Origin: a plasmid
Length of the DNA: 64,000 nt
Strand: one strand, 5' to 3'
Sequence record: NZ_CP028351.1
Shown one piece after another: positions 23,859-28,188 of this stretch. Under the pieces are notes generated by a model. It made no database searches and had not been told where the DNA came from. It saw nothing but the letters and a program-made list of their open reading frames with translations. Made by a program: the position numbers and the translations under genes. Positions within the stretch are counted from its first letter, which is position 1; every line of letters starts with the position of its first letter.

Positions 23859-24698
23859 ATGAAAATTCACCACCTTAACTGTGGTTGTATGTGCCCGCTG
23901 GGCGGCGCGTTCTATGATGGATTCAGTAAAGGCCTGAAAGCGCACCTGGTCTGTCACTGCCTGCTGATTGAGACAGATCGCGACGGGCTGGTGCTGGTCG
24001 ATACTGGCTTTGGGCGGCAGGATATCCATACGCCCGGCAGTCGCCTCTCGGGCTTTTTCCGCGCCTTAAACAATATTCAGCGGCGTGACGATCTCACCGC
24101 CTTGTCACAGGTGAAGGCACTGGGCTTTCGGGCTGACGATGTGCGGCATATTATTCTGACCCATCTTGATTTTGATCATGCTGGCGGACTGACCGATTTT
24201 CCGCAGGCGCGCATCCATCTGTTGCAGCAGGAGGTCGATACTGCCCACCAGCGTCATAGCTGGCTGTCGCGCGAGCGCTATCGTCCCGGACAATGGGGCG
24301 GGATCGGCAACTGGGAAACCTATCAGCCGCAGGGGGAAACATGGTTTGGTTTTGAGGCGGTAAATCGCCTGCGGGATTTACCACCGGAGATTTTGCTGGT
24401 GCCGCTGGCGGGCCATACGCCGGGTCACGCGGGCATTGCGATTCAGCAACCCGATGGCTGGCTGCTGCACGGCGGCGACACCTGGTTTTACCGCGGCGAA
24501 ATGCGACAGCCGACGCGCCACTGCACGCCGGGACTGCGCTTTTACCAGTGGATGATGGGCATGGATAATGTGGCCAGACGGCACAACCAGCAGCGACTCC
24601 GTGAACTCTCCTGCCAGCGCGGCGGCGAAATCACCTTTTTCTGCAGTCACGATGCGCGCGAACTGGATGCGTTGCAGATTAATGCGCCGCTGCGCTGA
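23859..24698 (+). CDS. MBL-fold metallo-hydrolase with variant metal motif
   Basis: THLDFDHAGG (HxDxDH instead of HxHxDH) plus downstream His/Asp residues; 279 aa. Confidence 0.7.
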   Translation: MKIHHLNCGCMCPLGGAFYDGFSKGLKAHLVCHCLLIETDRDGLVLVDTGFGRQDIHTPGSRLSGFFRALNNIQRRDDLTALSQVKALGFRADDVRHIILTHLDFDHAGGLTDFPQARIHLLQQEVDTAHQRHSWLSRERYRPGQWGGIGNWETYQPQGETWFGFEAVNRLRDLPPEILLVPLAGHTPGHAGIAIQQPDGWLLHGGDTWFYRGEMRQPTRHCTPGLRFYQWMMGMDNVARRHNQQRLRELSCQRGGEITFFCSHDARELDALQINAPLR

Positions 24699-24746
24699 TG
24701 CGATAAACTCCGTAATGGTGATGGGGCAGTCACCTCAGGGCGAGGA

Positions 24747-25061
24747 CTATGCCGTCCCGTCACTCCCCTGGGACGTCACGAGCCCCGGATGCAGAGGCAC
24801 GCCGGAAACGTCCGTATTTTCACGCGCTTTGTGCAGATCGCATGCAGCCTGCATGGATAACCAGAGCCGCGCTGAAATACCCAGCCCCGCCTCCAGCCGA
24901 AGAGCCATTTCCGGGCTTACGGAGGCTTTTCCGCCTGACACTTTGCTCAGCGATGCCGCCGAAACGCCCAGCTGTTTAGCCAGACTGCGCATACTGATGT
25001 CATTATCTTCCAGATATTCCGCTATCAGGCTGCCTGGGTGTGGCGGTTTAAACATTACCAT
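24747..25061 (-). CDS. higA: HigA-family antitoxin (XRE HTH)
   Basis: MVMFKPPHPGSLIAEYLEDNDISMRSLAKQLGVSAASLSKV.. tracks Proteus/Vibrio HigA. GAGG lies 8 nt before the ATG, which overlaps the higB-remnant stop (TGATG). Confidence 0.8.
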   Translation of the reverse strand: MVMFKPPHPGSLIAEYLEDNDISMRSLAKQLGVSAASLSKVSGGKASVSPEMALRLEAGLGISARLWLSMQAACDLHKARENTDVSGVPLHPGLVTSQGSDGTA

Positions 25062-25198
25062 CAATGATAATCCTCGCGGTTGAGAATGAATGCGTCGACG
25101 TCCGTGAATCCGAATGTGATGTGCCAGTTTGCTCTGACCGGAACTGAATAGACGTTCTTTCTTTCCCCGTGCCTGGGTAAAAGCGAAAGCCCGGCTTT
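25061..25198 (-). pseudogene. higB: 5'-truncated higB toxin remnant (C-terminal ~45 codons only)
   Basis: The reading frame [45 protein letters not shown] matches the HigB C-terminus (..HPLKGDREGYWSITVRANWRITFQFINGDAYILNYEDYH). An in-frame stop lies just upstream and there is no start codon. The N-terminal half has been replaced by the divergent yefM gene. Confidence 0.6.
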
Positions 25199-25239
25199 TC
25201 ATTGTACAATGGTTTGTTTTATTCACTGCGGAGGTCTTT

Positions 25240-25491
25240 ATGAAAGCCATCATTTTCGGCGAAGCCCGACGGAATCTTTCTGCCACGATGATTCAGACGG
25301 CAGAAGATAAAGCGCCAGTAATGATCATTCGCCGGAACGGTGAGTCCTGCGTGCTGATGTCGACTGAAGAATATAACTCACTGGAAGAGACGGACTGGCT
25401 ACTGCGATCGCCCAGGAATGCCCGCAGATTGATGGATGCTATCGAAAGCCTGCGAAGCGGTGACGGGACTGACAGGAATGTGATTGCGTAA
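25240..25491 (+). CDS. yefM: YefM/Phd-family antitoxin, full length
   Basis: 83 aa; ..[45 protein letters not shown] is nearly colinear with E. coli YefM. Confidence 0.85.
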
Positions 25492-25577
25492 AACTGTCCA
25501 GGTCCGCAGAAGCCCGGCGGGTCTTTGCCGTCAGTGGGGATGCTCTGTCAATCGCCTTATGCCGCTATCATTATTGA
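25488..25577 (+). pseudogene. yoeB: yoeB toxin remnant (internal in-frame deletion, ATG replaced by GTA)
   Basis: The frame overlapping the yefM stop reads [29 protein letters not shown], i.e. the YoeB N-terminus (MKLIWSEE) joined to its C-terminus (RLVYAVTDDSLLIAACRYHY), with about 55 codons missing. Confidence 0.5.
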
Positions 25578-25650
25578 CGGGCTCAGGAGTTTACCCCTGA
25601 GCCCTTATCTTGCGCCTGTTTCAGCGGCGTCGTCATCCACCGCAATCCTG

Positions 25651-28188
25651 TTACGTCGGATCGCCCGCCCTCTTTTTAAGCTGTGCGGAAAGCCATGGCG
25701 CAGTCAGACTCTCTGCGGATGTGCTGACCGCTTCCGGCGTACCGGACGAGACAATCCTTCCGCCCTTCAGCCCCGAACCGGGCCCCAGATCAATCACCCA
25801 GTCCGCCTCTGCCACAATGCGCATTGTGTGTTCCGCCATCACGACGGTGTGGCCGCGCGTTACCAGTTCATTCAGCACAATCAGCAGTTTGTCCATGTCG
25901 GATGGGTGCAACCCGGTTGACGGTTCATCAAGCAGATAGAGCGTGGCTGTGCGCTGGACGCGTTGCAGCTCCCAGGCGAGCTTGATGCGCTGACACTCAC
26001 CGCCAGAGAGCTCCGTGGCGGGCTGACCCAGCGTCAGGTATCCCAGCCCCAGAGATCGCAGTGCCGACAGGGAACGCTGGATCCCGTCGTACCCGTCAAA
26101 CACCCTGGTGGCATCGTCTACGGTAAGATCAAGCACATCCGCTATGGTCAGGTCGTTCCACTTCACCTCTAGCGTTTCGGGGTTGTAGCGGCTTCCCGCA
26201 CAGACCGAGCAGGTTGCGGTGGCGCTGGGCATAAAGAGCAGCTCTATCGAAATCTGTCCCTGACCCTCGCACGCAGGACAGCGACCCGCGGGCAGATTGA
26301 AGGAAAACCGGCTGGCGCTGAAACCTCGGGCTTTCGCCTCGGGGGTCTCTGCAAACAGCCGGCGGACGATATCGAAAAAGCCGGTATAGGTGGCCAGATT
26401 GGAGCGTGGCGTCCGCCCGATAGGGCGCTGATCGATTCTGACCAGACGGCCAATGGCGTCATTTCCGCTGAGAACCTGACCTTTAACGTCCGGCACCAGG
26501 TCCTCTTCTTCACCCTCTTCACTGTCAGATGTTTTGTCAAAACGTCCGAGCATTTCCGGAAGAACGCGATTCAGCAGCGTCGATTTGCCTGAGCCGGAAA
26601 CGCCGGTAACCGCCGTCATTCTCGCCAGTGGGATGGCGATATCCACGCCGATAATATTGTTGCAATGGACCTGCTCAAGCCTGAGCCAGCTCTCCGCGGG
26701 CTGGCGCTGGCGCAGCCCGGTATAGCTGCGGGAAAAGAGATAGCCTGATGTCGGTGAGGCACTGACGTCTTTAAGGCCTGCCGGTTCACCGTTATAAACG
26801 ATCTCACCACCATGCGTTCCCGGACCGGGGCCGACCTCGATGAGCCAGTCAGCCTCGGCGATGAGGTCGAGGTTATGTTCGACGACCACCAGCGAGTTAC
26901 CTGCACGCACAAGATTCCTGAGGGATGCGAGCAGCGCTTTGACATCCTCAGGATGCAGACCAGCTGAAGGCTCATCCAGCACGTAAAGCACGCCAAACAG
27001 CCGCGATATCAGCTGGGTAGCCAGACGTACGCGCTGCAACTCGCCGGAGGAGAGCAGCGTGGTGCGGCGTCCCGGTGCCAGATGCCCAAGTCCCAGCGTC
27101 TCAAGCTGTTCAAGCCGCATGCAGATATCTGACGCCATCCGGATGACGGCTTCCCGCAGCGCCGCCTCGGCAGGCAGATCTGATGATGAACCGTCTGCAT
27201 AAGGCCTCAGCCGTTCAGCAAGTTCAGAAACCGACAGCTCACTCAGACTGGCAATGTCATAACCGGCAAAGGTCACGGACAGTGCGTTCCGGTTTAACCT
27301 TTTGCCATGACACACTGAACAGGGCGTGACCGTGACAAAGCGCGCCAGCCGTTTTTTCGTCGTCTCGCTGCCACCGGAATAGCTCTGCAATACGATTTTA
27401 GCTGCGCTGGTGTAGGTGCCGGTATAAGCGGGCTCTTCGCCAGCCGCCAGGGCTTTTTCACGCTGTTCAGCGTTCAGACCCATAAAAATCGGCACTGATG
27501 GCTGCTCGTCAGTCAGCAGTATCCACTGCTGGTCGCGGGCTGAAAGCGTATCCCAGGGGGCATCGACATCGTAGCCGAGCGTCTCAAGGATGCTGCGCAG
27601 ATTTTTGTTATGCCAGCCCCGCGGCCATGAAGCTATGGCGCCCTGCCGGATGCTCAGTGACCTGTCCGGCACCATCGCCTCGGTTCTGACGGTATGAACC
27701 CGTCCCAGCCCCTGGCAATGCGGACAGGCACCTTCAGGATTGTTAGGCGAGAAATAATCGGCGGTCATAAACGGCACACCGTCAGGCCTTGTGCCCGCAC
27801 GGGAAAACAGCAGGCGCAGCGTGACGGAAATTCGGGTCAGGCTGCCTACCGTTGAACGCTCCTGCGCGCCAGCCCGGCTCTGCTGAAGCGCCACCGCAGG
27901 CGGGAGTCCGTCAATATTATCCACATCCGGCGCAGCGGCCTGATCGATCAGGCGACGGGCATGGGGTGAAACCGACTCGATAAACCGGCGCTGGGCTTCT
28001 GCATAAAGCGTATCAAAGGCGAGTGAGGATTTCCCGGAGCCTGAAACCCCCGTGAACACCACCATGGCATTACGGGGAAACCGCAGCGATACATCTTTGA
28101 GGTTATGTGTTCTTGCACCCTGTACCGAGACATAAGGATCAATGTGCTCATCAGCGCGATAAGTATGGGCGTTATCTTGTTCTGTCAT
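25651..28188 (-). CDS. Class II UvrA-like ABC ATPase (UvrA paralog lacking the UvrB-binding domain)
   Basis: Two ABC modules ([10 protein letters not shown] / [10 protein letters not shown] Walker A; LSGGE signatures) and zinc-finger Cys pairs. Only about 25 aa separate [10 protein letters not shown] from the CPHCQG zinc finger, against about 140 aa in canonical UvrA. Total length is 845 aa against about 940 aa. Confidence 0.85.

Follow-up and report, generated by a model that had tools for sequence, protein, structure and literature searches.

We analysed a 64,000-nucleotide stretch of the plasmid sequence record NZ_CP028351.1 (hereafter the window), in which two toxin-antitoxin (TA) loci of unrelated families lie head-to-head at 24747-25577. 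The DNA belongs to a plasmid of the pPag1 type from Pantoea vagans, and this segment is 97.4% identical to pPag1 of strain C9-1. Four elements make up the locus, namely an intact higA, a 3' remnant of the toxin gene higB, an intact yefM, and a 29-codon remnant of the toxin gene yoeB (Table 1). A first-pass annotation of this DNA had identified all four of them at these positions and had described both toxin lesions essentially correctly.

Both antitoxin open reading frames (ORFs) are unbroken, as had been claimed (higA, 104 codons; yefM, 83 codons). The HigA protein scores 86.1 bits against TIGR02607 antidote_HigA (cutoff 47.7) and 31 bits against Pfam HTH_3 (cutoff 23), and shows 85% amino acid (aa) identity to its counterpart in P. 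agglomerans pSUH1_B (locus L003), where this site holds an intact higBA. The YefM protein scores 136.1 bits against NCBIfam NF008499 (cutoff 121) and 59.9 bits against Pfam PF02604 PhdYeFM_antitox (cutoff 29.8; E=2e-16), and differs from the YoeB-paired YefM copies at 20 of 83 residues.

The toxin genes, in contrast to the antitoxin genes, are destroyed. Directly upstream of higA, where a functional higB would stand, only the 3' remnant is found, which carries no full-length HigB domain and no start codon. It matches residues 51-93 of intact Pantoea HigB (tblastn, 67% identity, E=6e-16) and positions 57-91 of 91 in the Pfam model PF05015 HigB-like_toxin (RelE/ParE superfamily) at 15.5 bits, below the gathering threshold of 27 (E=0.025). 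Sixteen of its 45 residues have changed, which leaves 64% identity to a C-terminus that is nearly invariant among intact HigBs. Likewise, the yoeB remnant lacks the start codon and catalytic core of a full-length YoeB domain; it matches YoeB residues 61-84 (tblastn, 75% identity, E about 1e-7) and positions 58-80 of 80 in Pfam PF06769 (18.1 bits versus a threshold of 27; E=0.0027). Both remnants are thus homologous to toxin C-termini, as first proposed, with scores that are sub-threshold in Pfam and clear by tblastn.

Alignment to syntenic loci with intact higBA attributes the higB lesion to a 256-bp deletion, which took out higB codons 1-50, the GTG start and ribosome-binding site (RBS) of higB, the higBA promoter, a pair of putative HigA operator repeats, and the -35 hexamer upstream of yefM. 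The microhomology at this junction is a single G and is uninformative. The first-pass annotation had described the 5' half of higB as replaced by yefM; the alignment shows instead a deletion within a pre-existing divergent higBA/yefM arrangement. In yoeB, alignment to the intact gene revealed a 165-bp in-frame deletion (junction 25514/25515) that removed residues 10-64. The start codon of this gene was also lost, not by a change of ATG to GTA as had been suggested: the ancestral start was GTG, which overlapped the stop codon of yefM in the sequence GTGA, and a single G>A at 25490 turned yoeB GTG into GTA and yefM TGA into TAA simultaneously.

The antitoxins do keep their RBS and overlap geometry, as had been claimed, with the higA ATG still sharing one base with the TGA at 25061-25063 that closes the higB frame. 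Beyond these, the higBA promoter, the putative HigA operators, and the yefM -35 box are gone. These operators were recognised in P. agglomerans pSUH1_B (L003:2258-2308), where two 22-nt direct repeats, 29 bp apart, lie just 5' of higB and each contain a GTTTC-N7-GAAAC palindrome; they are probably HigA operators. The motif has no copy in the whole 64-kb window, both repeats having been deleted from the locus. On the yefM side, a promoter scan of the intact locus L005 found TTGTCA-16-AATGAT around the operator, and the -35 of this promoter falls in the segment that the window has lost. What remains is the YefM operator L palindrome TCATTGTACAATG, which matches the E. coli YefM L repeat TCATTGTACAATGA (repeat taken from PMC1802561) at 13 of 14 bases, while the position of the S repeat reads TGTTTT and is degenerate. 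A sigma-70 consensus scan of 24650-25700 detected no promoter-like site, a result that, coming from a consensus scan only, does not prove the genes silent; read-through from the UvrA paralog gene on the same strand could serve as a transcription source for higA. No other HigB or YoeB homologue that could need these antitoxins was found within the window. Overall, with both toxins destroyed and the control regions damaged in this way, the locus does not constitute a functional type II TA module.

Table 1 Features of the TA site and its flanks in the window
Feature	Position	Strand	Remark
MBL-fold metallo-hydrolase gene	23859..24698	+	left flank; conserved boundary of the variable TA site
higA antitoxin gene	24747..25061	-	orphan, open ORF; HTH_3 / TIGR02607
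Gene-conversion tract in higA	24802..24842	-	about 41 nt of exact identity to pPV989-94 higA
higB toxin remnant	25061..25198	-	last 43-45 codons + TGA; no start codon, in-frame stop upstream
Junction of the 256-bp deletion	25193/25194		CCCG/GCTT
YefM operator L palindrome	25199..25211		retained; core TGTACA at 25203-25208
yefM Shine-Dalgarno sequence	25230..25234	+	GGAGG, 5 nt 5' of the ATG; read from the sequence
yefM antitoxin gene	25240..25491	+	orphan, intact ORF
yoeB toxin remnant	25488..25577	+	29 codons, GTA at start; YoeB N-terminus joined to C-terminus
Terminator-like hairpin	25579..25604	+	follows the yoeB remnant; conserved in loci with intact yefM-yoeB
UvrA paralog gene	25651..28188	-	845 aa; right flank; conserved boundary of the variable TA site; same strand as higA

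Allelic states of the site in Pantoea plasmids

The same site, bounded by the MBL-fold hydrolase and UvrA paralog genes, was compared across complete Pantoea plasmids of the pPag1 type (rep_cluster_807), together with five metagenome contigs (L100-L104) retrieved with the deletion-junction sequence. Loci are labelled L001 (C9-1 pPag1), L002 (FDAARGOS_160), L003 (pSUH1_B), L006 (Candidatus P. gossypiicola), L095 (pPV989-94), and so on. An intact yefM-yoeB without higBA was present in 14 plasmids (e.g. L004, L005, and L091), and an intact higBA next to yefM and a decayed yoeB in 11 (e.g. L003), so that intact versions of both modules exist at this very site. The state of the window recurred in two plasmids (C9-1 and FDAARGOS_160), in the genome of Candidatus P. 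gossypiicola, and in the five metagenome contigs. In thirteen further plasmids yefM is deleted, and what remains is higA with a 24-nt stub of the higB end; four of these (L087 and L092-94) have a common 1-bp frameshift. The yefM gene stands alone in two plasmids (e.g. L089), and the site is almost empty in another two, Lij88 (L090) and that of P. deleyi, the former of which keeps 92 nt spanning the higB end and the higA start. In Candidatus P. varia (L009), a higA fragment adjoins an intact yefM-yoeB, which means that a plasmid with higA plus a live yefM-yoeB must once have existed. E. coli complete genomes yielded only distant matches (60-80% identity) to plasmid higBA and chromosomal yefM and were uninformative on the locus.

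Both deletions are identical in nine independent sequences (the window, L001, L002, L006, and L100-L104). An assembly artefact or a chance event was therefore rejected, since the two deletions recur in C9-1, FDAARGOS_160, Candidatus P. gossypiicola, and all five metagenome contigs. A single yoeB loss shared by the higBA-intact state and the window state was also rejected, because their deletions are different and non-nested. The G>A at 25490 occurs in the window, L001, L002, L101-103, and the higBA-intact lineage (L003), but not in L006 and L100. As these last two have the 165-bp deletion yet keep GTG/TGA, the substitution was rejected as a shared first hit; in the window clade the deletion preceded it, and in the higBA-intact lineage it arose separately. 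By this alignment, base 25490 has changed at least twice independently.

The series further revealed what happens to the antitoxin genes after the toxins are lost. Three independent frameshifts were found in higA, all in toxin-less lineages: 1 bp in L002, 11 bp in L100, and the 1-bp change of the L087/L092-94 clade. No such frameshift was seen in toxin-linked copies of higA. Moreover, higA is reduced to fragments in L009 and L090, and yefM has been wholly deleted in one lineage, that of the 13 higA-only plasmids. A live toxin beside a broken antitoxin was seen at no locus of the series.

At L089 (1-1837; P. agglomerans CFBP13505), the MBL-fold hydrolase gene and higBA have been replaced by a gene for an S-type pyocin domain protein that abuts the orphan yefM, an arrangement shared by two plasmids. 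This replacement is further evidence of the site as a gene-turnover hot spot.

Selection and recombination in the orphan antitoxin genes

Omega (the dN/dS ratio of non-synonymous to synonymous substitution rates) was estimated with our own maximum-likelihood branch-model program (GY94/F3x4). For yefM, omega was 0.044 with an intact yoeB and 0.61 without it (likelihood-ratio test against one ratio, p=8.6e-11); for higA, it was 0.084 with higB versus 0.39 in the toxin-less crown (p=2e-7). The rise in dN/dS after toxin loss is thus 5- to 14-fold, a value to be read with caution given the short genes, the self-written program, and the evident recombination. Pairwise counts showed the same shift in yefM, the yoeB-linked copies being separated by 10-22 synonymous versus 0-4 non-synonymous changes and the toxin-less lineages by about 11 versus 31. 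In parsimony substitutions per site over the whole clade, higA and yefM (0.225-0.226) lie close to the dead higB remnant (0.241), with the yoeB remnant and the flanks at 0.38-0.44.

Several observations weigh against a fully neutral drift of the two genes. The omega of 0.61 for toxin-less yefM differs from 1 (p=0.043), and so does the value of 0.53 from crown branches only (p=0.03), a run in which the stems were treated as background because the yoeB losses of the two states differ; in a data set without L100, however, the estimate was 0.66 and not different from 1 (p=0.16). The toxin-less higA value of 0.39 lies more clearly below 1 (p=3e-5) and stays there when the conversion tract is masked (0.43, p=8e-4). 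In addition, no frameshift or nonsense change was found in yefM in about nine toxin-less lineages, although the rate in the toxin remnants, three indel events per 223 bp, predicts about three in this gene (rough P about 0.04). The 41 bp 5' of yefM are also the most conserved segment of the clade. These observations are compatible with some residual function, but they could also stem from recombination that imports selected alleles, or from selection against harmful truncated products; alleles shaped under selection bias omega downward when they are brought in. Taken together, the constraint on both antitoxins collapsed at toxin death and their loss is under way, but the constraint is not zero.

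The conserved segment upstream of yefM (25199-25239), which contains operator L and the Shine-Dalgarno sequence, has accumulated four parsimony substitutions in the toxin-less clade and is its slowest-evolving segment. It also carries two 1-bp indels, one in L002 and one in L100.

Recombination has left marks on the higA side of the locus. Compared with L001, the window shows 21 differences in 24699-25061 (363 bp) and only one in 25062-25650 (589 bp), a pattern that points to a recombination breakpoint near 25061 and to a mosaic plasmid ancestry. Furthermore, the nine window-specific differences in higA from the nearest relatives, L101 and L102, all fall within 21 bp (24813-24833), and all nine match the allele of the conjugative P. 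vagans plasmid pPV989-94 (L095; IncFII), which marks a short gene-conversion tract. Older sequence resembling L095 (higA nt 166-215) is common to the window, L001, and L101. The conversion tract implies that pPag1-type and pPV989-94-like replicons have met in one cell.

For higBA, homologous modules do occur on mobile plasmids in the same host range. Several Pantoea plasmids that are conjugative or mobilisable carry the pPV989-94-type higBA beside psiA, and the HigB proteins of these plasmids are 89-93% identical to the pPag1-borne HigB. In contrast, the searches turned up yefM-yoeB on pPag1-type replicons only and on no conjugative plasmid. The mobile higBA modules give HigA a concrete target for an anti-addiction role, that is, for neutralising the toxins of incoming plasmids, which does not by itself demonstrate the function.

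Origin of the antitoxin-only state

The explanation that we consider best, with a probability of roughly 0.7, is that two addiction modules on a plasmid undergoing domestication are decaying in a set order and are caught here half-way, with antitoxins whose constraint is relaxed to near-neutral and which related plasmids have begun to lose. It builds on direct observations (the homologies, the mapped ends of the deletions, the series of allelic states, the shift in omega, and the higA frameshifts that arose independently). Under this scheme, higBA and yefM-yoeB would once have stood back-to-back between the MBL-fold hydrolase gene and the uvrA paralog. The 256-bp deletion took the 5' half of higB along with its promoter and operators, the 165-bp in-frame deletion gutted yoeB, and the G>A change later killed the GTG start of the latter. 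Since an antitoxin cannot go while its toxin works, a dead toxin beside an intact antitoxin is the default intermediate of such a process; the antitoxin could be lost safely only after toxin death, and its ORF would thus outlive the toxin. The orphan genes would subsequently drift under strongly relaxed, near-neutral constraint and be lost piecemeal in sister lineages. The pPag1-type plasmids (rep_cluster_807) of P. agglomerans, P. vagans, and P. eucalypti are reported to be passed on vertically and to be turning into chromids (bioRxiv 10.1101/2024.10.17.618910), a setting in which addiction modules are expected to lose their value. We infer that this strain has no need of either antitoxin and that no promoter is dedicated to one or the other.

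The first-pass annotation had held that the locus looks selected rather than randomly decayed. As the main explanation this is not supported, in view of the order of loss, the later decay in relatives, the relaxed omega, the damaged promoters, and the chromid setting; toxin-first loss is both expected and already documented, so a selected origin is not needed. What survives of the idea is the residual purifying selection and the existence of an anti-addiction target for HigA. In its full form, the orphan HigA, and perhaps YefM, would be kept as antitoxin-only genes to neutralise homologous toxins of incoming plasmids. This possibility, which we regard as unlikely, draws on the related higBA next to psiA on conjugative or mobilisable plasmids such as pPV989-94, with their closely similar HigB; on the 21-41 nt of converted sequence in the window higA, a sign that the replicons shared a cell; on the higA omega of 0.39-0.43, significantly below 1; and on the frameshift-free yefM with its conserved operator and Shine-Dalgarno region. 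Anti-addiction is, besides, an established role of Erwinia chrysanthemi CcdA, and orphan antitoxins have been suggested to act likewise (PMC7354431). Yet the relaxation of constraint is large, and in toxin-less lineages higA has suffered three independent inactivations and two further partial deletions. Its promoter and operators are gone with no promoter-like site detected by the consensus scan, the window HigA shares no more than 72-76% identity with the HigAs of the conjugative or mobilisable Pantoea plasmids, and imported alleles pull its omega downward. YefM has no obvious incoming target, as its module is confined to pPag1-type replicons in our searches.

A narrower, and if anything less probable, version concerns HigA only, which might be kept under weakened but real selection as immunity to the HigB carried by conjugative plasmids resembling pPV989-94, which would enter these lineages of Pantoea again and again. 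If this were true, a toxin deletion on a plasmid turning chromid would have converted an addiction module into an anti-addiction gene, and the conversion tract would be a footprint of the encounters.

A third explanation, which we judge very unlikely, is that HigA and/or YefM, mainly the latter, have been domesticated into DNA-binding proteins that regulate their own or other genes. The DNA-binding domains of both proteins (HTH_3 in HigA, the Phd/YefM N-terminal domain in YefM) are present, the L palindrome and the 41 bp around it are preserved, and in E. coli the main repressor is YefM by itself (PMC1802561). For HigA, however, both putative operator repeats have been deleted and the motif is absent from the window. 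For YefM, the -35 box has been deleted and the S repeat has degenerated, and at an omega of about 0.6 its substitutions fall throughout the N-terminal DNA-binding half; autoregulation of a gene without any other output would, moreover, not amount to a function. Finally, the notion that the modules are still active, through functional mini-toxins or because the lesions are assembly errors, is effectively refuted: the yoeB remnant keeps a GTG start in L006 and L100 and could be translated there, but residues 10-64, most of the fold, are missing and the start is GTA in the window, the higB remnant has no start codon, a stop upstream, and many substitutions, and the same lesions recur in nine independent assemblies.

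The genes flanking the site have peculiarities of their own. The UvrA paralog, which adjoins the variable TA site in all pPag1-type plasmids, has 845 aa, canonical UvrA being longer. Outside Enterobacterales, the nearest homologues of the MBL-fold hydrolase are from cyanobacteria (62-64% identity), ahead of those from other proteobacteria, an odd distribution. In L002, the plasmid of P. vagans FDAARGOS_160, the hydrolase gene (locus 760-1599) is absent from the gene table though the DNA aligns; it may be annotated there as a pseudogene, like higA in the same plasmid.

Comparison with known systems

As a stand-alone finding the locus is ordinary: many orphan antitoxins stand next to toxin pseudogenes, and loss of the toxin first has been documented before. 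In a survey of Photorhabdus (Belot et al. 2026; PMC13617665), only the toxin was pseudogenised in 185 eroded copies, both genes in 186, and only the antitoxin in 8. By these figures, two adjacent eroded modules would both be of the toxin-only kind by chance about a quarter of the time. The present locus resembles the Photorhabdus cases in that toxins are dead while antitoxin ORFs persist, later stages lose both, and gains and losses recur in a small high-turnover site between conserved neighbours. It differs in lying on a plasmid that is becoming a chromid rather than on a chromosome, in bringing together two unrelated families head-to-head, and in offering a series dense enough to measure an omega shift for each antitoxin. 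Mine et al. reportedly described in 2009 the decay of chromosomal ccdO157 in E. coli (cited in PMC7354431).

Orphan antitoxins are also abundant in the Klebsiella pneumoniae complex, mostly in degraded-TA contexts (Horesh et al. 2020; PMC7192599), and the same three readings, as remnants, anti-addiction genes, or regulators, were offered for them. The Klebsiella study contained no selection test on the orphans, whereas in the Pantoea series the relaxation was measured and later-stage decay was seen at the same site. Herein lies the value of the locus: one site in one vertically inherited plasmid family gives an unusually complete natural time series, with intact, half-dead, antitoxin-only, frameshifted, and nearly empty states. 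This series covers two unrelated TA families, and the release of constraint can be measured directly for each antitoxin.

With the yefM-yoeB module of E. coli (Kedzierska et al. 2007; PMC1802561), the locus shares the equivalog NF008499, the L palindrome, and the overlap of antitoxin stop and toxin start. In contrast to that system and its L/S TGTACA operator, the locus here has a deleted toxin, a degenerate S repeat, and no -35 box. The complete, expressed chromosomal ccd of Erwinia chrysanthemi was shown to cross-neutralise CcdB of the F plasmid (Saavedra De Bast et al. 2008, as related in PMC7354431), while anti-addiction by orphan antitoxins "remains to be demonstrated" (PMC7354431). The likeness to the E. 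chrysanthemi ccd lies in a resident homologue that could neutralise an incoming toxin, with related higBA circulating on conjugative Pantoea plasmids; the difference is that only antitoxin ORFs are present here, known from their sequence, with damaged promoters and relaxed constraint. P. vagans C9-1, set against the higBA of pPV989-94, provides a ready system for the often proposed but rarely tested anti-addiction role of orphan antitoxins.

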